From the IMG/VR virus record IMGVR_UViG_3300032287_001571: DNA of 64,000 bases. One strand, written 5' to 3'. Shown piece after piece: positions 25,311 to 39,871 of this stretch. Position numbers and translations under genes: made by a program. Numbering within the stretch: position 1 is the first letter of the stretch; the number at the start of each line of letters is the position of its first letter. Source of the stretch: an uncultured virus (IMG/VR IMGVR_UViG_3300032287_001571). Lineage: Duplodnaviria > Heunggongvirae > Uroviricota > Caudoviricetes. The notes beneath the pieces are model-generated. The model did no database searches. It had not been told where the DNA came from and saw nothing but the letters and a program-made list of their open reading frames with translations.

Positions 25311-25604
25311 TCATTCAGGGTCATGGTAGTTGTCCTCGTCGTATTCGCCCACGAAGTCAAACAGGTGGAACTCGTCCACGATGATGATGGCCTTGGACTG
25401 GTTCTCTCCTCGGTATGTGACTCCCTCGGGGAGGTTGACCAACTCGTGGTCATCACCCACCGTCACCATGTTGATGGCTTCCACCGCCACGGGCACCATG
25501 ATGCTCGGTACGGGTGGGTAGCAGTTGAATGAGAAGTGCCACGAGACCTTCTCCTCAAGGCTGAGGTTGGACTCGGCGATGCCGAGTGCTGTTATGCGAC
25601 CCAT
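25311..25604 (-). CDS. hypothetical protein
   Basis: WHFSFNCYPPVP; SD. Confidence 0.7.
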   Translation of the reverse strand: MGRITALGIAESNLSLEEKVSWHFSFNCYPPVPSIMVPVAVEAINMVTVGDDHELVNLPEGVTYRGENQSKAIIIVDEFHLFDFVGEYDEDNYHDPE

Positions 25605-25605
25605 G

Positions 25606-25800
25606 TCAGTTTTCCTCCTGTTGTTCGTATGGGCTGATGTAGAAGTCGTAGAGGTTGTACTCTCCGACTGTTTCCTTGTACTCGTCGGGGTCGGTCAAGG
25701 AGTACTGCTCGCACTCCTCAAAGGTTCCGACGAATGCTGGGGTCTCGGAGTCTGGCAGGCACCCAGCGGATGCCCACCAGACGGAGAACTGTTCGTTCAT
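25606..25800 (-). CDS. hypothetical protein
   Basis: AGCLPDSE; coupled ORF. Confidence 0.6.
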   Translation of the reverse strand: MNEQFSVWWASAGCLPDSETPAFVGTFEECEQYSLTDPDEYKETVGEYNLYDFYISPYEQQEEN

Positions 25801-26039
25801 CAGAAAAGCACCGTCCCCTCGGGGAGGATGCCCAACTTGATGAGCGTGTCCACGGTTGCCGACAGGCTCTCCACCGCTTCGTCCTTGGTGTAGGAGTCCA
25901 CGGGGATGACGAGTGACAGCCCGTGTCGCTCCAGCACATTGGGCGTGTCGCACACGGTGCACACTCCCTCTTCGGTGAAGGCGTCGTAGGTGCTCCCGCA
26001 CTCACGGCACCACAGTGGTATCTGGTTGATGTTGCTCAT
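25800..26039 (-). CDS. small zinc-ribbon protein
   Basis: CREC...CTVC. Confidence 0.65.
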   Translation of the reverse strand: MSNINQIPLWCRECGSTYDAFTEEGVCTVCDTPNVLERHGLSLVIPVDSYTKDEAVESLSATVDTLIKLGILPEGTVLF

Positions 26040-26257
26040 TGGATGTTCTCCTTCTTGTTGAGTTTGTTGAGCAGTCTCTGTGCCCTGTCCGCCTGCACTG
26101 CGCAGTAGGACGATGACTCGGGGTCACCGTAGGTGTGGTTGACACGGGAGAACCCGCTCATCCACGACTGGTACAGCACGAGGGCGCTGATGATGGTCTC
26201 GGTGTACTCCTCGGCGTCGTCATCGGACAGCGCCTTGAGTGCTTGGGTTGTGTTCAT
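26036..26257 (-). CDS. hypothetical protein
   Basis: SD and ORF. Confidence 0.6.
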   Translation of the reverse strand: MNTTQALKALSDDDAEEYTETIISALVLYQSWMSGFSRVNHTYGDPESSSYCAVQADRAQRLLNKLNKKENIQ

Positions 26258-26268
26258 GTTCTTTCCTT

Positions 26269-26832
26269 TCAGGAGAGTGAGTGCTGGAGGTCGTCCTCTG
26301 CCTCGCCGAGCCAGTCACGGAAGGTGTCCACCGCATCGGCAGGGATGAGAACCGTGATGGCGGTGGAGAAGACATTGGATGTCGGGTCACAGACGAAGGC
26401 CACCTGACACGGGGGGAACTTGTCCCCGCTGATGATGTCCTCCATCCAGTCGTTGAAGACGGACTTGCGCTCGCCGACGGAGTCGCCCCATGCGCCAGTC
26501 GTCCAGCCGTTGAGTGCGTCCACCCAGCCCTCAATGGTCGTCGTGTAGTAGCCACGCCAGCCATCGGTTGAGGTGTAGGTGCGGGACAGTTTGAACCCCA
26601 TGGGCTCGTCGCCGTACTGGTTGAACACGAAGTTGTCAGCCACATAGAACTTCTGTGGCTCTCCGTCCCCGACCACGACGGTGACCGTGGATGCGTCCGA
26701 GGTGTCGGACTCGTAGCAACCCCAGCAGAACCACTCCTCGGCGATGGGCGACCATTGGCAGTCGTCCACTTCGGGGTTGATGGTCTCCTTGCAGTTGCCA
26801 CACTCGTGGGTCTCTGGTGCGTCAATGTTCAT
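26269..26832 (-). CDS. zinc-finger-containing hypothetical protein
   Basis: CGNC...CWGC; TDGWRGYY. Confidence 0.7.
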   Translation of the reverse strand: MNIDAPETHECGNCKETINPEVDDCQWSPIAEEWFCWGCYESDTSDASTVTVVVGDGEPQKFYVADNFVFNQYGDEPMGFKLSRTYTSTDGWRGYYTTTIEGWVDALNGWTTGAWGDSVGERKSVFNDWMEDIISGDKFPPCQVAFVCDPTSNVFSTAITVLIPADAVDTFRDWLGEAEDDLQHSLS

Positions 26833-27131
26833 CAGTTGTTCTCCTTGTTTGCGGTGGCGTACTGCCACGGGTGAATGCCGAGTTTGGCGATGGGTTGGTC
26901 GGTCTGAACCATGAAGTCCAGCCCGATGTTCTGTCCGTGTCTGGCGACGAACCACTGGTCTGGCGTCAGTTCCCAGTAGGCGTAGTCGCCGAGCCAGTCG
27001 TACTCTGGTGTGTCCAGAACCTTGCCCAGTGCGTACCTGTCATCGGGGTTCTCACCCACGATGAAGATGGCCTGCATGGTCTGGTCTACACCAGTGTGCT
27101 TGATGGTCGCTGTGTATGCGCTTGTGCTCAT
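26832..27131 (-). CDS. hypothetical protein
   Basis: SD and ORF. Confidence 0.6.
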   Translation of the reverse strand: MSTSAYTATIKHTGVDQTMQAIFIVGENPDDRYALGKVLDTPEYDWLGDYAYWELTPDQWFVARHGQNIGLDFMVQTDQPIAKLGIHPWQYATANKENN

Positions 27132-27382
27132 TGTGCTTTCCTCCTCCGCACTCGGCGGTCTATGACTTTGGTTCCAGAGCGGGTGTCAAGGTTCCCGTCG
27201 TACAGGTACGCCCAGACACTGAGCCTGCCATCCTCCACGAAGAGGTTGACATCAATGTCCTTGCTGAACCCGTACCACCAGTCCACCGAAGCGGTCTTGC
27301 TGGTGTCACCGATGGTCTCGTACAGGTCAACGAGAGCCGAGCAGAACTTCTTGAGTTCGGCAGTCACTATCAACTGTTCCAT
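27128..27382 (-). CDS. hypothetical protein
   Basis: coupled ORF. Confidence 0.6.
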   Translation of the reverse strand: MEQLIVTAELKKFCSALVDLYETIGDTSKTASVDWWYGFSKDIDVNLFVEDGRLSVWAYLYDGNLDTRSGTKVIDRRVRRRKAQ

Positions 27383-27537
27383 CACTCCCACTCCTCGTAA
27401 CCGTCAAACCAGTCGTCGCCACGGGTGTCCTCACGACGGCAGTGTGCTTGTGCTTCGTCCAGTGTGAGACCAGTCAGGATGACCTTGCTGGCCCTGTCCC
27501 AGTCCTTGTAGAAGCGGATGACTTTGTAGGTGCTCAT
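27382..27537 (-). CDS. small hypothetical protein (not in ORF track)
   Basis: AAGGAG SD; MSTYKVIRFY...TGLTLDEAQAHC...WFDGYEEWE. Confidence 0.65.
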   Translation of the reverse strand: MSTYKVIRFYKDWDRASKVILTGLTLDEAQAHCRREDTRGDDWFDGYEEWE

Positions 27538-27549
27538 CAGTTGTTCTCC

Positions 27550-27789
27550 TTAGATGAGGTCGCCGTAGTCCACGGCGAGTTCGGTGATGTTTGTGTCTTC
27601 GGGGTCTCGGTCAAAGAGGCTCCACTCGTCCTCCTCGTCGTCCTCCACTGGTTGGATGTCCTTGTGCCCAGCGCCCTTTGACCATGCGAGGTCAATGGCG
27701 TCGTGCACGAAGTCCCACGCCTCCTCCTCGGACTCGGCGTCCACAGTGACGGTGACTTCCCATGTGATGTTGAATGCGTACTGGCTCAT
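27550..27789 (-). CDS. acidic hypothetical protein
   Basis: VTVDAESEEEA. Confidence 0.65.
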   Translation of the reverse strand: MSQYAFNITWEVTVTVDAESEEEAWDFVHDAIDLAWSKGAGHKDIQPVEDDEEDEWSLFDRDPEDTNITELAVDYGDLI

Positions 27790-27791
27790 GG

Positions 27792-28028
27792 TTACTTCGC
27801 TTCCCTGACGGACGGAACCAACTGCACCAGTTTGCCGATGATGGCGTCTGCCTCGTCGGGTTCGGAGAAGTTGATGAACAGTTGGAACTCCGCCTCGGTC
27901 TCGTTGATGGCGTCGTCCGACTCCGACTTGCACTTGATGTCAAAGACGATGAAGTCGTCAAAGCGACGGAGGTTCAGTTTGATGGTGCTCGTGTCCACAT
28001 CGTGGACGCTGGTTGACACTAGTGCCAT
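27792..28028 (-). CDS. hypothetical protein
   Basis: AAGGAG SD immediately 3' of hammerhead HH-A. Confidence 0.65.
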   Translation of the reverse strand: MALVSTSVHDVDTSTIKLNLRRFDDFIVFDIKCKSESDDAINETEAEFQLFINFSEPDEADAIIGKLVQLVPSVREAK

Positions 28029-28046
28029 GGTTGTTCTCCTTTGTTG

Positions 28047-28106
28047 TGACCTGCCTCTTCAGGCCGTGGGCGGTCATCCCACGACTACCCCCGAAGGGGT
28101 TTCGGC
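28047..28106 (-). ncRNA. type II hammerhead ribozyme HH-A
   Basis: minus strand: GCC GAAAC CCC UUCG GGG GUA| GUCGUGGG AUGACCG CCCACGGC CUGAAGA GGC A GGUCA; complete core, loop I UGACC pairs with 3' tail GGUCA; cleavage between 28086 and 28085. Confidence 0.9.
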
Positions 28107-28271
28107 TCAGTTGTACTTGTTGGAGATGTGGAGGGCGACGAAGATGCGCTCGTGGTCGGCGCAGTCCTCCACCTCACGCCAGTCCTCGGCGCTCCACTGG
28201 TCGGTGACGAGGAGCACGCACTCGTTGCTCCCGTAGTTGCCATCGCTGGCGAAGTAGGAAAGTGTGGTCAT
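28107..28271 (-). CDS. small hypothetical protein (not in ORF track)
   Basis: MTTLSYFASDGNYG...; stop codon abuts HH-A. Confidence 0.65.
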   Translation of the reverse strand: MTTLSYFASDGNYGSNECVLLVTDQWSAEDWREVEDCADHERIFVALHISNKYN

Positions 28272-28283
28272 GGTTGGTTCCTT

Positions 28284-28646
28284 TCAGGAGTTCTTCAGGT
28301 AGGGCTTGCTGGGCTTGATGGTCTTGGCGACTGCGACCTCGTCGCTGTTGATGCGACCGACGAGGAGTTCGGCGTCAAGGCGAGCCTTGTCCACCTTCTC
28401 CACGATGATGCGCTTCCACTGTGCAGGGGTCAGCAGTTCCTTGAGCACCTCGTCGTTCCACGAGGTGGTGCTGGCGCTCACGAGCGTGAGGTTGCCGAGG
28501 CTGGTCTCCACCTTGGTGGTGTCCGAGGACTGGAGGCGCTTGATGAGCACCTCGTCGTGCTCCTTGAGACGCTCGGTCAGTGCGTCCAGTTCCTGCTTGA
28601 GGAGGATGCGCTCCTCGGCGAGTGTGTTGATGGTCTTGGTTGCCAT
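28284..28646 (-). CDS. hypothetical coiled-coil protein
   Basis: A/C-rich leader and AAGGAG SD. Confidence 0.7.
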   Translation of the reverse strand: MATKTINTLAEERILLKQELDALTERLKEHDEVLIKRLQSSDTTKVETSLGNLTLVSASTTSWNDEVLKELLTPAQWKRIIVEKVDKARLDAELLVGRINSDEVAVAKTIKPSKPYLKNS

Positions 28647-28702
28647 TGTTGGTTTCTCCTTTGGTTGGGTTTGGGTTGATGTTGTCAGATGGGTGTGTCG
28701 TG

Positions 28703-28915
28703 TCACCAGACCTGTGCGTCTTCTATCTGCGCATGGTCAAGTTCCACGGTGATGTCCTCGGCGGGGTGGTTGAAGTCGTCGGCGCTGGTGACCACGACAT
28801 TGAGCATCGCCTCCTCGGCGAAGTTCTGGATGGCCTCGTCGTCCCAGTCGTCGGGGACATTGGCCTGAATGGTCACCGACAGGTTGATGCTCTGTGTGAA
28901 TCTGATGGTCTTCAT
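28703..28915 (-). CDS. hypothetical protein
   Basis: AAGGAGAACAACCAATG start. Confidence 0.65.
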   Translation of the reverse strand: MKTIRFTQSINLSVTIQANVPDDWDDEAIQNFAEEAMLNVVVTSADDFNHPAEDITVELDHAQIEDAQVW

Positions 28916-28935
28916 TGGTTGTTCTCCTTGTGTGT

Positions 28936-29035
28936 GTGGTTGCTGGGCTTGCGCCCTGACGACACCGAGATGCCTGCTCGCACCTCGGTGCCCTCAGAGC
29001 GCCACCGCCGTAGCGGTGACGCCCCCGAGCACCAC
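28936..29035 (-). ncRNA. structured intergenic element, copy A (predicted 4-way junction)
   Basis: 27-nt core identical to 30670-30696; cUACGg and GCAA tetraloop hairpins. Confidence 0.65.
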
Positions 29036-29044
29036 CTCGGTTGG

Positions 29045-30586
29045 TCACCCCACCCAGTCGCTGAGCAGGGAGGACAGGAACGACGCATCCTCAGCGCCGA
29101 GGTCTTCACCGAAGCCGTCCAGAACGGCGGTGAGGTTCTCCTCCTTGGCGTTGAGAAGACCGAACATGCGGTCATCCAGCGTCATCTCCCCGTTCGCACG
29201 GGCACCAGTGAGGTGCCACGCCGTGACGGGGCGGTCTTGGGAGATGCGGTGGCACCTGTCCTCCGCCTGCTTCAGTTCGGCAGGCGTGAACGGGAGTTCC
29301 ACCGACATCCACTGGTTGGCACGGGTCAGCGTGAGACCGACGCCAGCGGACTGGTAGTTGCCGACGAAGATGTTGGCACTGCCTGACTGGAAGTCGTCCA
29401 CCGCCTTCTGCTTGGCATCGTCGCTCATGCCACCGACGACGGACACCACGCTCCAGCGGGGGTCAGTCTTGGCACGCTTGGCGCACTCGTCCACGATGGC
29501 ACCGATGACCGAGCGGTGGTGAGCGAACACCACGACTGGCTCGTCGGACTCCACGAGGGACTGGATGTGCTCCAAGGCGAAGTCAACCTTGGCCTTGCCG
29601 AGCGCCTGACGCATGGCGGTCAACTGGGTGATGGTCTCGGCACGGGATGCCTTGAGCACCGCCTCACGACCTCCACGGTCAAAGACCCAAGCGAGGAAGT
29701 CACGCTCAATGCGCAGGTACTCACGCAACTGGGAGTCGGTGAGCACCACGGGCAACTGGGCACGGCGCTTCGCAGGGAGTTCGGTGAGCACATCGTCCTT
29801 ACGGCGACGGACATAGCAGGTGCCACGCAACTTCTCGTGCAGTTCCGCACTGTTGGTGGAGCCGTTGAATGTCCAGCCGAAGTCGTTCTTGATGGGGTCG
29901 CAGTACCGCCACTTGAACGCACCAGCGCTCTTGAACACGGGCTGGAGCGAGCCGACGATGTCCAGCAGGCTGACCAGTTCCACGGGTCGGTTGACCGCAG
30001 GAGTGCCCGATGCCAGCACGACATAGCCGTCGTCACGCACGCCACGGGCGAGCCCGAGCAGTGCCTTGGTGCGCTTCGCCTTCTCGGTCTTGAAGCGGTG
30101 CGCCTCGTCCACGAGGATGGCACCGAACTTCACGCTCTCCAGCACGGGAGCCCACGGTGTGAGCACGGCATCGCCGATGATGACGACATCGGTGTCGGGC
30201 ACGCCGTTGGGCTTGGTGCCCTCCACGACATCGTGGGTCAGGTGCGGTGCGAACTGGGTCAGTGCACGGCGCCACATCTCACGCAGTGACGGCGGGCAGA
30301 CGACGAGCACCTTGTGACCCTCGGACTGTGCACGGACGGCGACGGCGATGAGTTGCGGGGTCTTGCCGAGACCCATCTCGTCACCGAGGATGACACGGCG
30401 CTGACGCAGGCAGTACGCCACGCCCGCACGCTGGTACGGGAGCAGGGGAAGTGCGAGGTCAAAGTCAAGGTCGGCATCGTGCGCCGACGAGAGCGAGGTG
30501 AGTTCAGGACAGATGTCGGATGAGTCCTTGGCGACACGGCTGGCGCCGTCCAAGAACTTCACGAGGTCGTCAAGAGCAGTTGACAT
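29045..30586 (-). CDS. SNF2/HARP-like helicase (second)
   Basis: GDEMGLGKT, VDEAH, SGTPAVNRP, GVGLTLT, QAEDRCHRI. Confidence 0.92.
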   Translation of the reverse strand: MSTALDDLVKFLDGASRVAKDSSDICPELTSLSSAHDADLDFDLALPLLPYQRAGVAYCLRQRRVILGDEMGLGKTPQLIAVAVRAQSEGHKVLVVCPPSLREMWRRALTQFAPHLTHDVVEGTKPNGVPDTDVVIIGDAVLTPWAPVLESVKFGAILVDEAHRFKTEKAKRTKALLGLARGVRDDGYVVLASGTPAVNRPVELVSLLDIVGSLQPVFKSAGAFKWRYCDPIKNDFGWTFNGSTNSAELHEKLRGTCYVRRRKDDVLTELPAKRRAQLPVVLTDSQLREYLRIERDFLAWVFDRGGREAVLKASRAETITQLTAMRQALGKAKVDFALEHIQSLVESDEPVVVFAHHRSVIGAIVDECAKRAKTDPRWSVVSVVGGMSDDAKQKAVDDFQSGSANIFVGNYQSAGVGLTLTRANQWMSVELPFTPAELKQAEDRCHRISQDRPVTAWHLTGARANGEMTLDDRMFGLLNAKEENLTAVLDGFGEDLGAEDASFLSSLLSDWVG

Positions 30587-30611
30587 GGTTGTTCTCCTTT
30601 TGTGTGGTTGC

Positions 30612-30703
30612 GGTGGGCAATGCTATCGCCCTCAGGGGGCACCAACACACTTTGTGCTGATGCCCCCTGAGAGCGCCACCGCCGTAGCGGTGACGCTCCC
30701 ACC
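30612..30703 (-). ncRNA. structured intergenic element, copy B (predicted 4-way junction)
   Basis: same core hairpin; second and third arms differ in sequence but still pair. Confidence 0.65.
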
Positions 30704-31378
30704 TCATGCTTTGCTGGCGCACTCGGGGCCGAGACCGAGCGCACGGGATGTCTCGTCGGTCAGGTGCCGACCGCACGCTCCGCACACTCCCAGTTCCCGA
30801 CCGTAGAGAGCCTGCGCCTCACGAGCCTGCTGGGGGGTCAGGGAGGCGAGACGCTCGGCGTGAGCCTTGGTCTCGGCGTGGGTCATGGTCTGGTCTGCAT
30901 GACCGCCGATGGTGCGGAGCAACTGCTTGGCACCGCCCTTGATGCGGACGATGAAGAAGTCAAGGTCGTTCGTGCCCTTGAGGTTCGGCAGTGCGTAGCG
31001 CCCGCACTCCACGGATGCCAGCCCCTGCGCCTCGTTGAAGCACTCGCCCTGCTTGTGGAAGTTCTCCCACTGGCGGTGGGCGACGGCGACGGCGAAGCCA
31101 GTGCCGACCTCCACCTTGCCACCGCACAGAGCACAGAATCCCTCACGCTTGTTGATGATGCTGTGCCCCTCGGGCAGGTGCGCACGCTCGGTGTCCACGG
31201 GCTTGGAGACCGCCTTGACCTTGTCAATGAATGCCGAGGCATCCCTGATGGTCAGGCTGTCAATGCCCTTGTCTCGGATGAATGCGTCAACATCGGTGAT
31301 GCCGAGCACCTCCTTGCGCTCCTCCAGCAGTTTGCGGAGGAACGACTGTTGCTTGGGTGTGATGGTTGATGTGGTCAT
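30704..31378 (-). CDS. DUF6011-like zinc-ribbon protein
   Basis: CGACGRHLTDETSRALGLGPECA; N-terminal TPKQQSFL. Confidence 0.75.
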   Translation of the reverse strand: MTTSTITPKQQSFLRKLLEERKEVLGITDVDAFIRDKGIDSLTIRDASAFIDKVKAVSKPVDTERAHLPEGHSIINKREGFCALCGGKVEVGTGFAVAVAHRQWENFHKQGECFNEAQGLASVECGRYALPNLKGTNDLDFFIVRIKGGAKQLLRTIGGHADQTMTHAETKAHAERLASLTPQQAREAQALYGRELGVCGACGRHLTDETSRALGLGPECASKA

Positions 31379-31584
31379 TGGTTGTTCTCCTTGTTCAGTG
31401 CATCGGGGCTGATGCAGTAGTCCTTGCCGAGGGTGCCGTGGCTGACGACGACACCGCCGACCTTGTCGCACTTGTCGCTGAATCGGCGCTCGTTCACTAT
31501 CACGACGGTGGCTACCGCCAGTGAGATGCCGATGATGATGCCGACCACCACCGAGGTGAGGTCTCGCTTGTCCTGCTGGTTCAT
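31375..31584 (-). CDS. small membrane protein
   Basis: TM helix followed by C...GG...C. Confidence 0.65.
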   Translation of the reverse strand: MNQQDKRDLTSVVVGIIIGISLAVATVVIVNERRFSDKCDKVGGVVVSHGTLGKDYCISPDALNKENNQ

Positions 31585-31600
31585 GGTTGCTCCTTTGATG

Positions 31601-31666
31601 TCTGATGACTCGTCAGCACGGGCACTCACCCGTGTACGCCCGAAGGCGTTTCGTCATGTCAGAGTG
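31601..31666 (-). ncRNA. type II hammerhead ribozyme HH-B
   Basis: minus strand: CACUC..AUGAC GAAAC GCC UUCG GGC GUA| CACGGG UGAGUG CCCGUG CUGACGA GUCAU CAGA; cleavage between 31635 and 31634. Confidence 0.9.
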
Positions 31667-31908
31667 GCTCGGTCATGCTCGCTCATGCAGACGAGGCACC
31701 ACACACTCACAGCGTCCTCGTTCAGCGCCCAGAACGGGGCGAAGGTCTTCTTGCTGTGCTCGTGCCTCACGCCGACCTGCTCCTTGCAGGAGTCGCACTC
31801 CCATGTCCACACGGCCCACTGCGGGTCGGCGACACCCTTGTTCCACTTGCGGACGAGAGCCTCGTCCACGATGAACGGCGAGAAGAATGGCTGGTAGTAG
31901 GTGGTCAT
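31654..31908 (-). CDS. small zinc-finger protein
   Basis: CDSC...CLVC; stop codon lies inside HH-B stem II. Confidence 0.6.
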   Translation of the reverse strand: MTTYYQPFFSPFIVDEALVRKWNKGVADPQWAVWTWECDSCKEQVGVRHEHSKKTFAPFWALNEDAVSVWCLVCMSEHDRATLT

Positions 31909-32072
31909 TGGATGTCCTCCGTCTTGATGGGGTTGAAGTGGTCGGTGTCCAGCAGTGCGTCGTGTGCGCACTGTGCGCACAGGTCAAAGGTGTAGAAGCC
32001 CTCGGGTCGGTACGACGAGGGCAGGTAGAGGCGCTTCCCCGCAGGGGAGTCGCAGGTCTGGCAGGTGGTCAT
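31905..32072 (-). CDS. small zinc-finger protein (not in ORF track)
   Basis: MTTCQTC...LCAQC; SD. Confidence 0.55.
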   Translation of the reverse strand: MTTCQTCDSPAGKRLYLPSSYRPEGFYTFDLCAQCAHDALLDTDHFNPIKTEDIQ

Positions 32073-32084
32073 GTTGGTTCCTTT

Positions 32085-32546
32085 CTATGACCATGCCGTC
32101 GGCAGGTCACATCGGTTGTACAGGGTGTGTAGAAGCGCTCCGTGCTCCACGGAGATGAAGCGACGAGCGAGACCGACGAATGTCGTGCGCCACTCGTCGT
32201 GGTGCCCCTCACCCGTCATGCAGATGAGGTGCGCCAGTTCGTGGCACAGGGTCAGCAGGTCAATGCTCGGGGTGGACACGACGATGGCGTGGTGCTCGTG
32301 TGAGGCGCAGGCAAGGAACCCACGCCCCACACGCTTGACGATGACCTCGGGAGCAACGAGGTCAAGGTCGGCACACACGCCGTCAATGAAAGTCTGCGCA
32401 TCGTCTGCGGTCACGACCCTGCTCGGCAGGGCGGACTTGACCACGGACTCCACGGCGTACACGAGGCGCTGGTGCTCGGGCATGGCGGAGCGGAACCGCT
32501 TCGCCACACCCTGCACCTCGGTGAGGTACTCGCTCACATGGCTCAT
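32085..32546 (-). CDS. HExxH zinc metallopeptidase (TIGR04338/Rv0185-like)
   Basis: QRLVYAVE...LCHELAH...GHHDEW. Confidence 0.75.
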   Translation of the reverse strand: MSHVSEYLTEVQGVAKRFRSAMPEHQRLVYAVESVVKSALPSRVVTADDAQTFIDGVCADLDLVAPEVIVKRVGRGFLACASHEHHAIVVSTPSIDLLTLCHELAHLICMTGEGHHDEWRTTFVGLARRFISVEHGALLHTLYNRCDLPTAWS

Positions 32547-33241
32547 CGTCCGAGCGCTCCGATGGCACCACGACCAACGCCACCCGACGAGAACGACGAG
32601 CCCGCCGAACGACCAGCGCTGTAGCCAGACGACGAGCGTGCGTACCAGCGGGACGACGTGGAGCGCAGTCCGTGCACCTGTGCACGCATCTCGTTCTCGG
32701 CACGCTTGAGCCTGTCCACGAGCACGAGCGACGACCCGCCCTCGGAGACGACCTGCTGGACGACATCACGGTTCGCCTTGCGGAGCGCCGATGCGACACC
32801 AGACTGGAAGCCCATCCACCACGAGTTGCGGAACGAGCGGTCACCCTTCGGGATGGTGCGCACGGCGAGCATCTCCACCGCCGACCAGAGGGTCTTGACT
32901 GCGAAGATGTCAGCCTTGGTGCCGTACAGGTGGAGCACGAAGCCGTCACGCTTGTGCTCGTCCCAACGCTTGGACTGGTACGCATCGCATGAGTTGAGGC
33001 GGGCGATGGTGTACGCCACCTGACGACGACGGACAGCCCACGCACCGCTGATGACGAGCGTGTCGGACACGATGTCCTCGGACTCAGCCGACGGCTCAAG
33101 CGCCGACTCGTCAAGGTTGTGCTTCGTGATGAGGCGGTGCGCCATGGCGAGCGCCGTCTCTGCTTCAGCCTGCGGTGTGTTCGGGTGGTTGGCACGGGCG
33201 AGAATCGCCTGCACTTTCTCAATGATGTTCTGGTCGGTCAT
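32543..33241 (-). CDS. DUF2786 family protein
   Basis: IIEKVQAILARANHPNTPQAEAETALAMAHRLITKHNL; FRNSWWMGF; GYSAG. Confidence 0.85.
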   Translation of the reverse strand: MTDQNIIEKVQAILARANHPNTPQAEAETALAMAHRLITKHNLDESALEPSAESEDIVSDTLVISGAWAVRRRQVAYTIARLNSCDAYQSKRWDEHKRDGFVLHLYGTKADIFAVKTLWSAVEMLAVRTIPKGDRSFRNSWWMGFQSGVASALRKANRDVVQQVVSEGGSSLVLVDRLKRAENEMRAQVHGLRSTSSRWYARSSSGYSAGRSAGSSFSSGGVGRGAIGALGR

Positions 33242-33287
33242 GTTGGTCTCCTTGTTGGTGGTGCTGGTTGTTGATGGTGATGGTCGG

Positions 33288-33521
33288 TCAGCGCTCGTTG
33301 ACGGTGCCACAGACGAGGCAGGTCACTTCGCCCTCGTGGTCAACCTCGTGGGGGTACTCGCCCTCGCAGGGCTTGCACTCGTCCCACACGACGTTCGGCA
33401 GGTCGTCACGGAGCGCCCACAATGCGTTGTGGACACCCTGTGCGCCGAACGCTTGGTACAGCATGTAGGCGAGGTCGTGGAGGGTGACTTCGTCACCGTG
33501 GTGGTCTGTGATGTTCTTCAT
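33288..33521 (-). CDS. small zinc-finger protein
   Basis: CKPC...CLVC. Confidence 0.65.
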   Translation of the reverse strand: MKNITDHHGDEVTLHDLAYMLYQAFGAQGVHNALWALRDDLPNVVWDECKPCEGEYPHEVDHEGEVTCLVCGTVNER

Positions 33522-33562
33522 GTGTGTTCTCCTTGGTTGTGTTGGTCGGTGGTCGGTTCTGG

Positions 33563-33892
33563 TCAGTCCCAGTACGAGGTGACGGGCTCAGAGATGGTGG
33601 CGAGACTGTAGCCCCACTCGTCCAGCAGGCTCACATGACCACGCCATGCGTCAGCATCATGGAATCTGCTTCGGATGTTGACGGCAGTCATGGTCTCGGC
33701 CTGTCGGATGGCATCGGACAGCGACTCGGCACGGAACGAGAAGTACCGCACCTTGTCGGTCGTGTAAGCGACGATGGTGTAGACGCTCGTGGGCTGTTCG
33801 GCGCACTTGGCGCAGACTCGGTCATCGCCGATGTAGATGCCCGCACCATCGGGGACTTCGGTGGGGCATCGGTCGCAGGTGTATTCGGTCAT
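33563..33892 (-). CDS. zinc-finger hypothetical protein
   Basis: CDRC...CAKC. Confidence 0.65.
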   Translation of the reverse strand: MTEYTCDRCPTEVPDGAGIYIGDDRVCAKCAEQPTSVYTIVAYTTDKVRYFSFRAESLSDAIRQAETMTAVNIRSRFHDADAWRGHVSLLDEWGYSLATISEPVTSYWD

Positions 33893-33914
33893 GTTGTTCT
33901 CCTTGGTTGTGTTG

Positions 33915-33984
33915 CTGACGACCCATCGTCAGGTGACACCCTGAGTGTCACGACCCCCGTGAGGGGGTTTCGGGTCTCGGTCAG
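33915..33984 (-). ncRNA. type II hammerhead ribozyme HH-C (extra U after the core)
   Basis: minus strand: CUGAC CGA GACCC GAAAC CCCC UCAC GGGG GUC| GUGACAC UCAGG GUGUCAC CUGACGA U GGGUC GUCAG; cleavage between 33952 and 33951. Confidence 0.85.
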
Positions 33985-34862
33985 TATCCCCTGATGACCT
34001 TGCGGACGAAGTACTCCACGGCGTGACCGAGGAGGTCTCGCACGGCGGAGTCGGAGTACAGGCTCCGCACCGTCTGCCCCACGGCGATGCCGATGGCTTC
34101 GTCCACGCCGATGACTCGGTTGACCTGAGCCTCGTCGCCACGCCACAGGTTCAGCGTGCCGTGGGTCTCCAGAGTGGTCGTGCCGACCACGGCGAGGAAC
34201 CTCTCGGCGATGTCCTTGACGAGCACCTGAACGGCGTGGTCTCGGTAGTTCTGTGCGAGGCTGTTGCCGAAGTGGCGCTCGGTGTCCACCTCGTCGGTGA
34301 ACTTGTTGACGAACTCCTGCACCAGTCCCACCGCCCACTTCTCACGGTCATTCAGGGGCTGTGCGTCCTTGAGGTAGGCGATGGTCTGGAGACGAGCCTC
34401 AGCCTTCTGCGCCCGCTCACGCCACTCGTCAATGGCGTTGTTGATGAACGCCACGGGGTTGAGGATGAAGTTCACCCGCCACTTGTCGTTGGTGGTGAAC
34501 TGCACCACCGTGACATCGTCGCCGTCACGGGTCACGGTGTACCCGCTGATGAACGACCACGACTCGTTGGCGATGTCGTACACGCCCTCGGTCAGCACCG
34601 AGAACCCCTCGTCCTTGCCGTGGTAGTCCTTCGGCTGAACCCTGTGCAGGTAGGACTTGACGAGGTCAAACAGGAAGTTCTGCTGGAGGATGAAGTGGAT
34701 GGCTCCCTCGTCGCTCCACGAGGTGGAGTCACCGACGGTGGCGGTGTAGTCGTCCTGCGCATCGGCGATGAGGGCGAGAGCCCGCTTGCCACGGTTGGTG
34801 CGCTTGTTGATGGTTCGGTTCTCGTTCTGCTTGAACGAGATGTCCTTGGTTGCTGTGCTCAT
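33981..34862 (-). CDS. hypothetical protein
   Basis: long ORF with (CAAC)n leader and SD. Confidence 0.75.
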   Translation of the reverse strand: MSTATKDISFKQNENRTINKRTNRGKRALALIADAQDDYTATVGDSTSWSDEGAIHFILQQNFLFDLVKSYLHRVQPKDYHGKDEGFSVLTEGVYDIANESWSFISGYTVTRDGDDVTVVQFTTNDKWRVNFILNPVAFINNAIDEWRERAQKAEARLQTIAYLKDAQPLNDREKWAVGLVQEFVNKFTDEVDTERHFGNSLAQNYRDHAVQVLVKDIAERFLAVVGTTTLETHGTLNLWRGDEAQVNRVIGVDEAIGIAVGQTVRSLYSDSAVRDLLGHAVEYFVRKVIRGY

Positions 34863-34915
34863 TGGTTGTTCTCCTTGGTTGTGTTGGTTGTTGGTTGTTG
34901 GTTGTTGGTTGGTCA

Positions 34916-35299
34916 TCACCACGGCTGGCGAGCGCCTCCGTACAGCAGGCGGTCAGCCTGCGCCTCGGCTTCGCTCACCTCGGCATCTTCGTTCGCTCGC
35001 TTCACAGCCCGCTCGTACTGCTCCAATGCGTCCTCGTAGTCGTCGGCGTGGTAGATGTCCGAGTCCTTGCCGTCCACGACGATGTGCTCCACCACGAACA
35101 TGACACGGCTCCATGTGCCGTTCTCCCGCTGGTAGTGGTAGCCCTTCTCACGGACGATGAGTTCCACGCAGTAGGAGTCTGCGTCGTGACGGTTGAGAAC
35201 CCTCTCGTCACCCGAGTAGGTGCCCGTGGGTTCCAGTTCAATGTCGTGTTCCTTCTCCCACTCCGACAGTTCGTGGTAGTCGTGGAATCGTGGTGCCAT
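34916..35299 (-). CDS. hypothetical protein
   Basis: SD immediately 3' of HH-D. Confidence 0.65.
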   Translation of the reverse strand: MAPRFHDYHELSEWEKEHDIELEPTGTYSGDERVLNRHDADSYCVELIVREKGYHYQRENGTWSRVMFVVEHIVVDGKDSDIYHADDYEDALEQYERAVKRANEDAEVSEAEAQADRLLYGGARQPW

Positions 35300-35319
35300 G
35301 TGGTTGCTCCTTGGTTGGT

Positions 35320-35381
35320 TGAGATGCCTCATCAGGCCGTGGTCTCTCACACCACGACTACGCCCCGCAGGGCGTTTCGGC
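35320..35381 (-). ncRNA. type II hammerhead ribozyme HH-D
   Basis: minus strand: GCC GAAAC GCCC UGCG GGGC GUA| GUCGUGGU GUGAGAG ACCACGGC CUGAUGA GGC A UCUCA; loop I UGAGA pairs with tail UCUCA; cleavage between 35359 and 35358. Confidence 0.92.
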
Positions 35382-35768
35382 TCACTTCCAGTACGAGACG
35401 ACGGGCTTCTCGCCCGCACCGACCAGCACCTTGTTGGCGCTGTTGATGGCGGTCTGGCATGCGTTCAGGGTCTTGCGCAGGTCGGCACGCCCGAAGGAGT
35501 CGTCGCTGTCGCACTCACGCAGGCACTCCTCGGCGTGCCAGAGGTAGTAGGCGACCTCCTTGGCGAACAGGCGTGCGCCCTCCACGGTCAGGTGAGCCTC
35601 GTAGGTGTGGGTGTGGTTCTTGCGACGCACGACGATGGGCGCTTCCCAGCAGGCGTTGAGCACCTGCTGTGTCTCGTCCATTTCGGCGATGGATTCGGCA
35701 TCCTCCACCCGTGCCTGCATCTCAGCAAGCACGAGGGAGGAGAACCTGACGGGATGGAATGTGGTCAT
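35382..35768 (-). CDS. hypothetical protein
   Basis: SD; stop abuts HH-D. Confidence 0.7.
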   Translation of the reverse strand: MTTFHPVRFSSLVLAEMQARVEDAESIAEMDETQQVLNACWEAPIVVRRKNHTHTYEAHLTVEGARLFAKEVAYYLWHAEECLRECDSDDSFGRADLRKTLNACQTAINSANKVLVGAGEKPVVSYWK

Positions 35769-35801
35769 GGTTGCTCCTTGGTTGTTGATGGTGAGGGTCG
35801 G

Positions 35802-36101
35802 TCAGTAGATGGCGCTGGGCTGGTCGTCCGAGATGAGCCACTTGGCGAAGGACTCGGACAACCCGCACTCCACGAGGAATGCTCGGTCTGCCTGTGCCTG
35901 TGCCAGCGTGTCTGCCTCCCAGTCCTCGGTGCTCTCGTGCGGGATGAGTGCATCCTTGACCTGAAGTGCCACCTGAGCGACCTCCAAGTAGTAGATGTTC
36001 TCGTCCATGTCGGGGTCGTCCCACCCTCCCATGTTGTGGTTCTGCACGATGTGGGCTTTCACGCCCTTGGCGATGCTCTTGCGGATGTCTTTTGCGTTCA
36101 T
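35802..36101 (-). CDS. hypothetical protein
   Basis: SD and A/C-rich leader. Confidence 0.65.
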   Translation of the reverse strand: MNAKDIRKSIAKGVKAHIVQNHNMGGWDDPDMDENIYYLEVAQVALQVKDALIPHESTEDWEADTLAQAQADRAFLVECGLSESFAKWLISDDQPSAIY

Positions 36102-36145
36102 GTGTGTGCTCCTTGGTTGGTTGGTTGGTTCTGGTCGGTGGTCGG

Positions 36146-36409
36146 TCAGAATCGGTCTGGGTAGATGGCGAGCACGCACCCGTAGTACGCCTCGCAGAAG
36201 ACGCCCTTCGGGCTCTCGGTGCTGTCCCAGCCGACAGCCCAGCAGTACGGGGCATCCCCGCCCTCCCAGCAGATGGCGGGGTGACCGCCCTCTGTCCAGT
36301 CGTAGATGAGGCTGGCATCGCTCAGGTCGTAGTGCTTGTACTTGCGCTGGAAGGCACGGAAGGTCGCTTCCGCCTGTCGCTTGGTGGCGTGCTTGGTTCG
36401 TGTGGTCAT
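36146..36409 (-). CDS. hypothetical protein
   Basis: ICWEGG..PYCWA...GVFCEAY. Confidence 0.65.
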   Translation of the reverse strand: MTTRTKHATKRQAEATFRAFQRKYKHYDLSDASLIYDWTEGGHPAICWEGGDAPYCWAVGWDSTESPKGVFCEAYYGCVLAIYPDRF

Positions 36410-36455
36410 GGGTGCTCCTGTCTGTGTGGGTGGTCGGTTGTTGATGGTGAACGGT

Positions 36456-36815
36456 TCAGGCGTAGACGACGGTGCCGAACACGAGGTTCTGCACGATGCA
36501 GTCGCCCTCGTCTGCGTCAATGTCTGCGTCGTCCACGAGGTCGTACACGGCGTAGCCGAGGTGGTCGCCCACGGCGGTGAAGATGCCGTTGACGGTCAGC
36601 AGGGTCGTGTCCGAGTACTCGCCCTCGTCGTCGGTCTCGGGGTTGCTGGACTCCAGCACGGCGAAGACCTCGTCGCCGTCGGCGGGCAGGTTGTCCCAGT
36701 CGTAGCCGTTGCGGTACGAGAGGGCTCCCCACCACGAGTACGACTCAAATGCCGAGCCGAGTACGGCGGAGACGATGTCACGCTTCTGCGTTGCGGTGAT
36801 GTTCTTGGTGCTCAT
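36456..36815 (-). CDS. hypothetical protein, first gene of the minus-strand operon
   Basis: AGGAAGGA SD; DADEGDCIVQ..VFG.VVY. Confidence 0.7.
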   Translation of the reverse strand: MSTKNITATQKRDIVSAVLGSAFESYSWWGALSYRNGYDWDNLPADGDEVFAVLESSNPETDDEGEYSDTTLLTVNGIFTAVGDHLGYAVYDLVDDADIDADEGDCIVQNLVFGTVVYA

Positions 36816-36829
36816 TGGTTGTTTCCTTC

Positions 36830-37665
36830 CTGTGAACGGGGTGTCCGTCCCCGTGATGCACCGAGCCATGGAGGATGGCTGGGGGTGACCCAGCGAGAGC
36901 CTTGAGACGGCCCGATGCATCACGGGCACGGAGTCGGGGAGGTGGTTAAGCCAGTCCCCCCGACACCGTTGCATCCACCGCCTGTTCCCCTTGCCCTAGC
37001 GAGTGCCGAGGGGGGCTGGTGGACAGCGACAGGTACCCGCACTCGTCGGGAGGAAGTGAGTCCTTCTCGGCTGTGTCGCCGAGCCTCTGTTGCGTGTGTC
37101 GTGTTGAAGCCATCGCTACCTGCGCCGTCCGTCTGGTTGAGCCCTGCCGTCTTCGCCGTTCATCGGGGGGTGCCGTGGCACCGTGTCCCGACTACCTGCC
37201 ACCCGCCCTCTCTGCGCTCCTCTGGCACCGTCCTCCGCCGTGTCCACTGCCCTCTCAGGCAGGTTTCCCGACGGCGACTGCATGCCAGCACCCCGCAGGT
37301 ACTAACGATGGCGATGGGCTGTTGGCTCGGGCTGTCAGCGGGACAGTCACGCAACATCCTGTGTCGCTCTGATTCTGAGAAGACCCCCCTCCGCCGTGGC
37401 GCTGGCCCAAGTGCTCTGGGCGTTGCCCGCACGGTGAGCCATCGGGCTCGGGCGGGGGCGTTGGGGAGGGAGGTCTTCGGATGTCAAGGGGCGCTGGATG
37501 AATGACTCGCTGGCTCAAGTGCTCTGAGCGTGCACCACGGGGGTTGGGCGTGGAACCGAGCGGGCGGGGAGGTTGCCCACGGGGGGCTCCCCTGCACGGG
37601 GGCACAGCGGTGCCCAACGCTCGGCGGTCATCTCCAGTTGTCAAGGTGCGGGGCTTGCGCCCTCA
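36830..37665 (-). ncRNA. candidate large structured ncRNA / operon leader (~850 nt)
   Basis: no credible ORF; several nested long-range helices; repeated hairpin motif. Confidence 0.6.
37634..37662 (-). promoter_or_regulatory. boxB-like GNRA hairpin followed by a boxA-like sequence
   Basis: minus strand GGGC-GCAA-GCCC then GCACCTTGACAACTG just after the predicted transcription start. Confidence 0.45.
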
Positions 37666-37670
37666 CCCCC

Positions 37671-37701
37671 ATCATGCCCACAGGGTGACCCCCCTTGTCA
37701 A
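37671..37701 (-). promoter_or_regulatory. putative sigma70-type promoter of the minus-strand operon
   Basis: TTGACA-N19-CATGAT; the -35 lies within the palindrome CCCCCTTG-T-CAAGGGGG. Confidence 0.55.
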
Positions 37702-37729
37702 GGGGGTTGTTCAAACTTTCTGGGAGGGG

Positions 37730-38545
37730 GTCTGAAAGAGGAAGCGGGCGGGCGTGCGCCCGTGCGTGCGTGCGCTCGTGCGTGTGCGCCCCCGTGTGTG
37801 CGTGGGCGTGGGCGGGCAGGGGGGCAGGCGGGAGTGCGCCCAAGCGAGAGGGGGCAGGAGCATGGGGGGGGGGAGGAAGGGAGGGCTGGGGGCTGGCTGG
37901 GCATTGGTACTGGGGGTGGCGGGGTGGTGGTTCCCCCTACCCCCCTCGTGCCCCCGTGGTGGCCCCCCCACCCATAGCCCCATCCCTAGGGTGGATACCC
38001 CTGGGGGTATGCAGAGGGCATTTATGCATGTTATGCAGTCCCGCATCCCCTTATTCCTTCGTCAAAGCCTTGTGGCACAAGGGTTTCCCGACTGCATAGT
38101 CATGCATTTGGGGGGGTCAGATTTCATTGTTACTCATTGGACTTTTGACACCTCAAACACCTCAAAAAGTCAATGAAAACGGGGCTAACTGGCGTCCCTG
38201 CATAAACATGCAGAATCGCCGTAGAGGCCCGAAAAGGGGGGTGCCTGCACTCCCATGCCAGAACGGGGGTTACTCACGGGTAAACGCATTCTGGCGCTTC
38301 CAAATGTACCCCAAATAAACCAAAGCCTTATGGCGCAAGGGTTTACCCATGGGTAGATACCCCCTGGGGTATAGTTAGGGGGGGTTGACAGGGGGGCGCC
38401 CCAGTGGTAACCCCCTCGGAAACCCTTACTGGGTATGGAGGAGGGGGAGGGGGGTGGCAACTGTACCCCCCCATGGTTAAACGGTCGGCGGGGTAAGGTA
38501 GGGGGGTAGGAGTGACCGCCCAACCACATACCCCCCTGGGTATAG
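37730..38545. other. G-rich non-coding divergent region with repeated palindromes
   Basis: G-runs, three ATACCC..GGGTAT sites, two AAAGCCTTRTGGCRCAAGGGTTT sites. Confidence 0.6.
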
Positions 38546-38575
38546 CCCTATTCTAGAAACGGGTACAATTAATGG

Positions 38576-38989
38576 GTGCGTCACCTCAACGAGTACCAGT
38601 TCAGGACCCATCCTATTGGTGCAACCAGCCTTTTTCCTGAGTCAGAGCCTGGAACATGGCGCACTGACATCATCCTGCGTGGCCCTGTGAAAGACACTTC
38701 CTACCCCCAAGGTGGGCGCAGGGTGGGATATCTGGAGTGGGAGTCCGACACTGATGTCACCCCACTACGGAGACCGAGCAATAGCCCCATTGTCATGGTT
38801 GAGGTGGATGAAGAACACCAGAGGAAGGGTCTCGCCACCGCCGCTCTCCGTCATTCTCAGGCAATCGCCAAGGCATCTGGCGGGCGTATCCCGTTTCCTG
38901 AGCACTCTGGAGACCGTACGCCAGAAGGTGATGCTTGGGCGCACTCTACAGGAGACCCCGTTCCACGGAATGTTCGTACTGGGCTATAG
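38576..38989 (+). CDS. GNAT-fold acetyltransferase, QF-tagged
   Basis: VEVDEEHQRKGLATA acetyl-CoA motif; HSGDRTPEGDAWA; N-terminal HLNEYQF. Confidence 0.8.
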   Translation: MRHLNEYQFRTHPIGATSLFPESEPGTWRTDIILRGPVKDTSYPQGGRRVGYLEWESDTDVTPLRRPSNSPIVMVEVDEEHQRKGLATAALRHSQAIAKASGGRIPFPEHSGDRTPEGDAWAHSTGDPVPRNVRTGL

Positions 38990-39013
38990 CCTTATTCAGG
39001 GTATGATGGTTGT

Positions 39014-39433
39014 GTGCCAGCGCCTGACGGAAAACAGTTCATACACCTTCTTGATGAAGGAGGACGCAAAAGAGCCTATGAAGCGTTGTATCACGGTACG
39101 ACTGTGGAGTTGAACGTGGGAGACATCATTGACCCCGCCAAATTTGCACGACCAGGGCGTAATCTAGCCTTCTCCACACCTTCTCTGTCGGCGGCAAAGA
39201 GGTTTGCAGGGGTTCAGTCACCACGAGTGCCGAAGGTTCCGCAGATTTCTGACGATGGTCAAATGGTTCGTGATGAGACACCAGGGTTCGTGTACCAGGT
39301 GGAGCCTGTGGATACCGAGGATTTGGACTCCACATGGGCACGGGAAATGAAGTATTTCAAGCCCAGGACGACAGAAGTGGTTTCCAACAAGGGTTTCCGA
39401 GTCGTCAAGATAATCCACCCCCGCTCTAAGTAG
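39014..39433 (+). CDS. Arr-like ADP-ribosyltransferase, QF-tagged
   Basis: LYHGT..L.VGDII.P, AFST...A..FA, GFVYQVEP; N-terminal APDGKQF. Confidence 0.75.
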   Translation: MPAPDGKQFIHLLDEGGRKRAYEALYHGTTVELNVGDIIDPAKFARPGRNLAFSTPSLSAAKRFAGVQSPRVPKVPQISDDGQMVRDETPGFVYQVEPVDTEDLDSTWAREMKYFKPRTTEVVSNKGFRVVKIIHPRSK

Positions 39434-39457
39434 CCTTATTCAGGGTAGAATGGTTAG

Positions 39458-39871
39458 GTGACAGTAAACCCTGACCAATTTGCAGAAGCATTAGACATCG
39501 TCAAACATAGTAAGGGCATGATTGAGGGCGATGACGCTAGAAAAGTCTTTAAAGCAGTAAACATTCGCTCATGGCCCATGGAATCCATGCCCACCGAGAA
39601 CCGACTGCACGGTCTTGAGAACGAGGGTGGGGTGTCAGCGAACGAGACACTCCACACCGCACAGTCACACCTCCACGGTCCCACCGTCCGCAAGTACATG
39701 GAGAATGGTGCGCCAGAGGAAGACCCACACGGAGAGGGGCGAAAGTACCTTCCAGAGGTCTACTTCTCCCCTCGTGGTCATCGTTGGATTGACGAGGGGC
39801 ACCATCGTCTCGTTGCCTCCCGACTCCGTGGTGATTTCGGCACCGAAGTGTACGAGGGGTATATCCACTAA
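39458..39871 (+). CDS. ParB/sulfiredoxin-like domain protein, QF-tagged
   Basis: LHTAQ...V.KY...IDEGHHRLVA; N-terminal VNPDQF. Confidence 0.7.
   Translation: MTVNPDQFAEALDIVKHSKGMIEGDDARKVFKAVNIRSWPMESMPTENRLHGLENEGGVSANETLHTAQSHLHGPTVRKYMENGAPEEDPHGEGRKYLPEVYFSPRGHRWIDEGHHRLVASRLRGDFGTEVYEGYIH

Follow-up and report, generated by a model that had tools for sequence, protein, structure and literature searches.

Processive antitermination through boxA and the Nus factors is textbook knowledge for rRNA operons and for phage lambda. The antiterminator of the rrn leader is built from a hairpin (boxB), boxA and boxC together with NusB-S10, NusA and NusG, and the nutL and nutR sites of lambda combine boxA and boxB with the N protein; the put elements of phage HK022 are cis-acting early-operon leader RNAs that bring about processive antitermination. 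Here, we analyze the minus strand between positions 36816 and ~37700 of a 64,000-nucleotide stretch (the window) of IMG/VR record IMGVR_UViG_3300032287_001571, an uncultured member of the Caudoviricetes, where a first-pass annotation made from the sequence alone had placed a ~850-nt, highly structured non-coding RNA. This stretch is best explained as an untranslated leader of ~850 nt that heads a leftward operon of ~13.5 kb in a large actinophage-like virus from freshwater, and our preferred reading of its function, held with moderate confidence, is that of a leader for rrn-type antitermination, dependent on Nus factors, with a hairpin module for processing or stabilization behind it. On this reading, the leader represents a new leader RNA family that uses a known signal and ends in a covarying 3′ hairpin module.

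In its proposed mode of action, this leader comes closest to an rrn leader or a lambda nut site, and it differs from both in being phage-borne in a probable actinobacterial host, duplicated and long, and in carrying the 3′ hairpin module. It resembles an rrn leader in that the boxA-like element is promoter-proximal, directly preceded by a small hairpin, identical to a Streptomyces element at 10 of 11 positions and followed by a long untranslated RNA, whereas it differs in heading protein-coding genes, in having two copies of the element 157 nt apart and in lacking any likeness to boxC. With the lambda nut sites it shares the setting in a phage early-operon leader, a boxA-like element and a conserved small hairpin, as well as a long hairpin just ahead of the first gene, the lambda N leader having a comparable RNase III site. 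However, the conserved hairpin lies ~55–105 nt from boxA here and ~8 nt from it in lambda, and the phage leader is several times longer. The hairpin in question, with its GAGCACU loop, is present in the window (two copies) and in homologue G002 (one copy) but not in homologue L130. No N-like protein was found among the 29 open reading frames (ORFs) of the operon with Pfam and PHROGs, in which the early genes had no match and most ORFs were unmatched. HK022 put likewise acts in cis from the leader RNA of an early phage operon, but through two stem-loops of ~70 nt with no boxA or Nus factors, whereas conserved single-stranded boxA-like elements are found here.

Use of boxA outside rrn has been described upstream of CRISPR arrays and suhB, where it is said to protect untranslated or poorly translated RNA from Rho (PMC13753749); those elements are chromosomal and gammaproteobacterial, whereas the present ones are phage-borne, duplicated and probably belong to an actinobacterial host. 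The GOLLD and ROOL RNAs, as portrayed in PMC12286853, resemble the leader in size class (~600–800 nt), phage association and freshwater origin, but the leader has no covariance-model match (E up to 10), an unconserved center and local hairpins only, and it is a gene leader rather than a free-standing gene. Rfam searches of the whole window at the gathering score returned only four tRNAs and Hammerhead_II, all outside the leader, while a search of 34800–38300 at E up to 10 gave nothing credible in the leader (best match mir-124, 16.6 bits, E 5), and L129 and L130 at E up to 1 gave no matches. With no Rfam match for the window leader or its homologues, the RNA is not GOLLD, ROOL or another curated class, in agreement with the first-pass annotation, which had been unable to assign it to any.

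The argument for an rrn-type signal starts from the elements at the 5′ end of the leader, which, together with the region covered by RNA-library contigs, are as follows.

37671–37701, minus strand: promoter, with −35 TTGACA at 37701–37696, a 19-nt spacer and −10 CATGAT at 37676–37671, based on the sequence and on G002
37651–37662, minus strand: 5′ hairpin GGGC-GCAA-GCCC, directly upstream of boxA-1, with a counterpart in G002
37636–37646, minus strand: boxA-like element 1 (boxA-1), CCUUGACAACU, 10/11 identical to the Streptomyces rimosus rrn-leader element
37479–37489, minus strand: boxA-like element 2 (boxA-2), CCUUGACAUCC, with counterparts in G002 and L130
36991–37654, strand not given by the contigs: span under RNA-library contigs (runs X15, X16 and X17)

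For a host-type comparison, Streptomyces genomes were reached through a RecA search, the 16S rRNA was located and the S. rimosus leader was read. This leader shows a hairpin and then GUUCCUUGAGAACUCAACAGCGUG ~210 nt upstream of 16S, with CCUUUGAAAAG ~95 nt later, and its CCUUGAGAACU is one base apart from boxA-1 of the window, CCUUGACAACU. The same arrangement of hairpin and then boxA is seen in the window, in G002 and in S. rimosus, with boxA-1 of the window ~20–30 nt from the predicted start, after the small hairpin; the G002 hairpin at this place, GGGGCGC-UUCG-GCGCCUC, has a longer stem and a different stable tetraloop. The G002 counterpart of element 1, CUCUUUGAAAACU, includes two stretches known from boxA consensus sequences given in PMC13753749: UCUUUGAAA, identical to the core of that of B. 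subtilis (AUGAUCUUUGAAA), and GCUCUUU, part of that of E. coli (UGCUCUUUAACA). Element 1 thus resembles the NusB-S10 binding consensus as far as sequence likeness goes. The B. subtilis rrn leaders are described in the same source as beginning with a small hairpin immediately followed by boxA (PMC13753749), and the conserved mycobacterial leader motif CL2 is regarded as a boxA antitermination element in PMC10218544. Element 2, 157 nt downstream of element 1, has the counterparts CCCUUGAAAAUU in G002 and CCCUUGACAAUU in L130. A single RNA-library contig (37288–37648) spans both internal TTGACA boxes, and there is no conserved −10-like hexamer 16–19 nt downstream of boxA-1 between the window and G002; the two TTGACA boxes within the transcript are boxA-like elements that recur in the homologues.

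Two diverged homologues of the leader occur in related phage contigs. IMG/VR holds at least 589 relatives by terminase. Homologue G002 (an 83,630-nt record, terminase 91%) shares three short collinear blastn islands with the leader DNA, and L130, truncated on its 5′ side by the edge of its contig, was reached via a 17-mer common to the window and G002. The G002 leader (826 nt, 57% G+C) heads a co-directional ~12.7-kb block syntenic with the window operon, each of the two homologues heading a ~13-kb operon; amino-acid identity between the window and G002 operons is 69% for SNF2 and 66% for DUF932, and the first gene differs. Unconstrained DNA would not be expected to align between operons this far apart, and indeed only 47.5% of the aligned leader columns of window and G002 are identical. 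Against this background, conservation is seen in the promoter and the 5′ hairpin, in the two boxA-like elements, in sequence islands and in the three hairpins of the 3′ end (H7, HL and HS, below). The consensus fold of G002 and L130 gives z −3.26 (0 of 60 column shuffles as good), compared with −1.43 for the reverse complement.

Other searches gave no homologue, whether by blastn of the leader against the "phages" collection, with a 30-mer and the box-B motif in viral contigs, or with the box-B motif in metagenome and genome contigs. L131, the third 17-mer match, was set aside, having just 18–19 nt in common, and when the motif was loosened, one viral locus was unrelated, as were 30 of 31 metagenome loci (GC-rich DNA), the remaining one, L013, being a probable chimera. 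In L013 (1–1156), a low-GC phage gene for a 291-residue K/E-rich protein is joined, 13 nt past its stop codon, to window positions 37441→37321 (minus strand); in seven of seven viral contigs this gene runs into a terminator instead. This is probably a chimera, possibly between two abundant RNAs.

Transcription of the leader is supported by contigs from three river RNA libraries, which were placed, along with those of one lake DNA run, on 34500–39500. Three of the six river RNA runs bearing the region, with three study codes, were examined, and contigs of all three lie on 36991–37654: 37000–37329 and 37402–37634 in X15, 37089–37304 and 37288–37648 in X16, and 36991–37205 and 37389–37654 in X17. 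This bears on the RNA coverage check proposed in the first-pass annotation, with the proviso that such contigs carry no strand, level or end information. The genes at 35400–36990 and 38600–39500 are free of contigs in all three RNA runs, as are H7, HL and HS, and uncovered parts prove nothing. In two studies the contigs terminate at 37648 and 37654 with no loose end, and that of the DNA run continues to 37863, a weak hint at a start just downstream of the predicted promoter, near 37665. The promoter that had been predicted at 37671–37701 is plausible: its −35 box, which lies within the palindrome CCCCCTTGACAAGGGGG, is identical in G002, and the G002 −10 box, GAGACT, retains A2 and T6; on the other hand, a generic consensus promoter scan returned no sites and did not call it.

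We assign with high confidence the region 36816–37700 (minus strand) to a conserved non-coding leader RNA, and the earlier statement that no credible ORF precedes the first gene holds for 36816 to ~37700 on the evidence of periodicity, ORFs and homologues. The periodicity of G+C at the third codon position (GC3) is flat over 36816–37700, with a spread of at most 0.16 in most 150-nt windows compared with 0.4–0.6 in the adjacent genes, and only two leader ORFs, of 21 and 22 amino acids, stand behind a Shine-Dalgarno-like sequence. The leader does contain open frames of 129 (minus strand) and 196 (plus strand) amino acids, and one G002 frame that is in phase with the first gene is interrupted by only one stop, which could be taken to mean that one or more unrecognized small proteins are encoded here. 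We regard this as extremely improbable, given not only the flat periodicity, but also that the 129-residue ORF has no match among 1.84 billion representative proteins and that substitutions between G002 and L130 spread evenly over the three phases (80/76/84), with 12 of 16 indels not multiples of three and 4 of 16 multiples of three. The 196-residue ORF falls in two clusters only, its own and one at 95% identity, and beyond their own lineage the ORFs of the leader are without relatives.

The best-conserved structures lie at the 3′ end of the leader, just ahead of the first gene.

36925–36972, minus strand: hairpin H7, GCAACGGUGUCGGGGGG - loop - CCCC..CUCCGUGCC, conserved in three homologues
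36844–36932, minus strand: hairpin HL, a clamp UCCGU/ACGGA plus a long helix, supported by shuffles and covariation
36834–36850, minus strand: hairpin HS, GGACGG-loop-CCGUUC, with an invariant stem and varying loops
36804–36831, minus strand: ribosome-binding site (RBS) AGGAAGGA (36831–36824) and ATG at 36815 of the first gene, where GC3 periodicity begins

In H7, 17 nt are identical in all three homologues; of its 16 shared stacked pairs, 13 are invariant and three are changed on one side to or from G-U, and the apical loops differ (15 nt in the window, UUCG in G002, AUAA in L130). HL is the 18-bp hairpin of the first-pass annotation (arms 36926–36909 and 36867–36850). On the minus strand it forms 20 contiguous pairs including G-U, a number reached in 0 of 100 dinucleotide shuffles, while on the plus strand it forms 13 (3 of 100). 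The comparison with shuffled controls that had been suggested comes out in favor of this hairpin, and its G-U pairs fit the minus strand alone. The helix is uninterrupted in all three sequences with an invariant 5-bp clamp, and its 18 shared stacked positions comprise 10 invariant, one with a one-sided change and seven with two-sided changes. The G-U pairs, like the UUCG and GCAA caps, can be understood only in terms of minus-strand RNA. The HS loops are ACACC, AUAAU and ACAAU in the three homologues. As the 5′ arm of HS overlaps the 3′ strand of the HL clamp, the HL-clamp and HS pairings are mutually exclusive, and they may form a two-state switch adjoining the RBS. We note that the partners of ACGGA (36844–36850), UCCGU upstream and CCGUUC downstream, are both invariant in the three homologues.

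Between boxA-1 and this module, the leader contains the following elements.

37513–37529, minus strand: box-B-like hairpin 1, GCUCA-GAGCACU-UGAGC, then CAGCG (direct repeat D6), with a mean pairing probability of 0.96
37379–37478, minus strand: unit 2, a closing helix 37478–37465/37392–37379 around box-B-like hairpin 2, recognized by duplex energy and z
37421–37405, minus strand: box-B-like hairpin 2, GCCCA-GAGCACU-UGGGC, inside unit 2
37104–37378, minus strand: variable central part, hardly alignable between window and G002, to which most strands of the long-range helices (pairing probability at most 0.0015) belong
37057–37103, minus strand: conserved islands CACGACACAC..AACAGAGGCUC and GAGAAGGACUCA around a small hairpin, identical blocks in G002

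The G002 copy of the box-B-like hairpin is GGUCA-GAGCACU-UGACC, so that two of the five stem pairs are changed on both sides among the three copies (GCUCA, GCCCA, GGUCA). Within the population, the linked single-nucleotide polymorphisms (SNPs) 37407 and 37419 turn a C-G into a U-A pair in four of the four runs examined, a compensatory change; SNP 37122 turns G-C into G-U, valid on the minus strand only, and the variant at 37417 weakens the closing pair of hairpin 2. For GAAGACCUCCCUCC/GGAGGGGGGUCUUC, which closes unit 2, the duplex energy is −32.9 kcal mol–1, a value matched by none of 6000 random window pairs, and this helix was not recovered in the G002 or L130 folds; the corresponding helix of unit 1 was discarded as evidence, 1970 of 6000 random pairs being as good. 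In the islands, G002 shortens the hairpin to CUC-UGCG-GAG.

Taking these elements into account, the supported structure is local, consisting of the 5′ hairpin, the box-B hairpins and the three 3′ hairpins, and covariation is found for local elements only (HL, 7/18; box-B hairpin, 2/5) and not for the central long-range helices. All seven complementarities listed in the first-pass annotation are present in the sequence as written, and two of them, the unit-2 closing helix and the 18-bp hairpin, stand. The other five are long-range helices of the center, which holds their 5′ strands and three of their 3′ strands, the remaining 3′ strands being at 37096–37088 and 37031–37025. Enforcing all five gives −280.6 kcal mol–1 compared with a minimum free energy of −293.5 kcal mol–1, a cost of 12.9 kcal mol–1, and dinucleotide shuffles of 36995–37665 contain at least 14 contiguous pairs in 7 of 100 cases and an 8+8 bulged helix in 20 of 100, such that these helices are at chance level. 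With the part that hosts them essentially unalignable between homologues, the picture of a highly structured ~850-nt RNA with nested long-range helices is not borne out; nor are the T-loop-like motifs, as CAGAG/GAGAG is not enriched family-wise. Folding of the 855 nt does give z −4.49 for the minus strand, compared with −1.56 for the plus strand (20 shuffles each), but this value is carried by the 3′ 210 nt (z −5.38 on the minus and −3.95 on the plus strand), with −1.27 for unit 1, −3.27 for unit 2 and −1.60 for the central 356 nt. Of the two readings that had been offered, antitermination gains support from the boxA-like elements.

In the mechanism that we propose, transcription would start at the TTGACA/CATGAT promoter and the RNA would open with the hairpin and boxA-1, followed by boxA-2. 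Host NusB-S10 binding to the nascent boxA, by analogy with rrn and CRISPR arrays, would build a termination-resistant RNA polymerase. Such a polymerase could traverse the untranslated leader, which is long and rich in C (C 240, G 217, A 133, U 85), and the many short genes and gaps of the operon without being stopped by Rho. The 300-nt center would be free to vary and is probably a spacer or a lineage-specific part. The last 140 nt would form H7, HL and HS just upstream of the RBS, where HL, a 13–20-bp duplex 30 nt ahead of the RBS, would be an RNase III-type substrate, a processing role suggested by analogy with phage early transcripts. Together, HL and HS may then detach the leader from the mRNA or leave the mRNA protected by a hairpin at its 5′ end, an effect that may be tuned by the choice between the two mutually exclusive pairings, HL clamp and HS.

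Several results weigh against an rrn-type antitermination leader. The 11-mer is not rare: at up to one mismatch it has two matches compared with 1.19 expected in 128 kb, and 37 of 100 shuffles have at least two, so the case for boxA rests on position, duplication and conservation. The comparison rests on one actinobacterial rrn leader, that of S. rimosus, and the phage sequence that comes after boxA (UGGAGAU/UGAAGAU) shows no likeness to boxC when set beside CAACAGCGUG / CAACAGCGUGCC of S. rimosus; in E. coli, rrn antitermination is reported not to require boxB and boxC (PMC2724277). The predicted accessibility of the boxA-like elements, 0.38–0.55 compared with an average of 0.34–0.36, is in modest excess only. 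No intrinsic terminator-like site is found in the leader, which fits Rho as the target of antitermination, a target that we infer from this absence. The region covered by RNA contigs, 36991–37660 (670 nt), folds no better than shuffles (z −0.67; 8 of 40 fold as well), and the consensus fold of the window and G002 is not significant (z −1.40; 5 of 50 shuffles). The covariation counts come from sequences folded singly, with pairs read upward from the conserved clamp, and thus cannot show broken pairs; MAFFT misplaces the HL arms. Finally, 10 other related records (G003–G012, terminase ~79–89%) show chance-level matches only, the two inspected being coding DNA.

The most serious competitor is a large phage RNA acting in trans, in which the first ~660 nt would be released with an end near 36991–37000 and act, for example, as a NusB-S10 decoy or via the variable center. 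We consider this unlikely, although a weak hint comes from the RNA contigs of two studies, which end at 36991 and 37000, with adapter letters joined directly at 37000 (X15) and the DNA contig continuing, and although leader length is kept in G002 in spite of the diverging center. Contigs cannot show RNA ends or levels, however, and the best-conserved structures, H7, HL and HS, are located 3′ of that end, which means that transcripts must extend across them; in addition, the center is not conserved and no repeated motif is enriched family-wise. The more specific version, an abundant ~660-nt RNA whose two boxA copies soak up NusB-S10, appears distinctly unlikely. Competition for host factors by boxA transcripts has reportedly been described, and such a phage RNA decoy, if real, would starve the host rRNA operons of antitermination while arming phage transcription. 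Two further ideas were rejected. For a protein sponge built on recurring loop motifs, no k-mer was significant family-wise; for an immunity RNA of the P4/P1 type that pairs with repeats, the leader has no minus-strand sequence complementary to the GAGCACU loop.

If the TTGACA boxes were instead −35 elements, the region could be a DNA-level control region of tandem promoters or operators that is transcribed incidentally. In keeping with this, three CCTTGACA boxes lie in 220 bp (10 matches in the window compared with 3.7 expected, 0 of 100 shuffles), and HL is an inverted repeat that scores on the plus strand too; but boxes 2 and 3 are not followed by a conserved −10-like hexamer in the window and G002, the RNA-library contig 37288–37648 runs through both, the G-U pairs and UUCG/GCAA loops fit minus-strand RNA alone, and the consensus-fold signal is stronger on the RNA strand, all of which make this account improbable. 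Even more doubtful is an RNA-only antiterminator of the put kind, with two tandem units acting on RNA polymerase without Nus factors: each of the two units has its conserved GAGCACU-loop hairpin and unit 2 folds well, but the unit-1 closing helix is at chance, that of unit 2 is missing from the homologue folds, L130 lacks the loop altogether, and protein binding accounts better for the conserved single-stranded boxA-like elements. An rrn-type antitermination leader remains our preferred reading.

The leader sits in a 1.76-kb gene-free gap (36816–38575) between the minus-strand block and rightward genes. Plus-strand genes of the window include DnaB, primase, PolA, RecA, WhiB, a collagen-like protein, three tRNAs and the terminase, by which the closest cultured relatives are Streptomyces phages of the BRock group (45–47% identity), and the WhiB genes point to an actinobacterial host. 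The minus-strand block at 23300–36815 (G+C 0.56–0.69, compared with mostly 0.50–0.58 elsewhere in the window) encodes WhiB, DUF932, an SNF2 helicase, DUF6011, DUF2786 and many unmatched small proteins. At 23000–38000 this block duplicates functions of the window, with a second SNF2 helicase and a second WhiB, and it looks like a module of different origin. Positions 36400–38000 are present in 14 DNA runs (lake/freshwater labels, one marine) with nine study codes and in six river RNA runs, the longest contig bearing the region being 91,220 nt. Separately, the 11.8-kb contig L142, from a metagenome-assembled genome labeled Beijerinckia, encodes a RecA 67% identical to that of the phage, and is probably a phage contig binned with a bacterium.

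The first operon gene encodes P0001, an acidic protein of 119 residues; for P0001 and the DUF2786 protein, no relatives were found in viral contigs. The first genes past the leader are hypervariable among near-identical phages (35850–36456). DNA run X2 differs from the window at 11 of 1408 letters in the leader and first gene, while downstream genes are 11–15% different or skipped; 36145–36456 is skipped, and 35850–36145 shows 45 letter differences and 22 gaps. Further downstream, a type II hammerhead ribozyme lies between two small genes at 35318–35382 (minus strand; 39.4 bits, gathering score 37). As run X2 keeps 35307–35384 (78 nt, no differences) and skips the flanking genes at 34868–35306 and 35385–35764, the hammerhead sits between swappable gene cassettes. 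One RNA-library contig starts at 35340 and continues into variant sequence. A hammerhead search in G002, G016, G003 and G005 gave no match, but the control was silent too, so absence is not established, and the idea that leader and hammerhead are linked was dropped.

On the other side, directly upstream of the leader promoter, at 37744–37960, purines and pyrimidines alternate in a (GCGT)n tract, after which come G/C runs (70–85% G+C); the tract is missing from the G002 counterpart and, in run X2, attracts numerous short, unrelated contigs. At 37762–37745 (minus strand) there is a terminator-like hairpin ending in a T-rich tail, and X15 RNA-library contigs are also found at 37955–38103 and 38213–38363. 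The 114-residue ORFs upstream of the leader are not a shared gene, the window and G002 versions being unrelated. The other half of the gene-free gap (37984–38545) holds three copies of the 16-bp palindrome ATACCCCTGGGGGTAT (37995, 38357 and 38528) and two 27-nt hairpin repeats (38063 and 38321), which are candidate operator sites of a divergent promoter region.

A search of titles and abstracts for boxA together with mycobacteriophage returned no report of boxA/Nus antitermination in phages of Actinobacteria. If confirmed, the present reading would mean that a widespread freshwater phage lineage borrows the rRNA antitermination signal of its host for a long early operon, and it would provide a compact and testable element, a duplicated hairpin plus boxA, for the study of Nus factors and Rho in high-GC Gram-positives.

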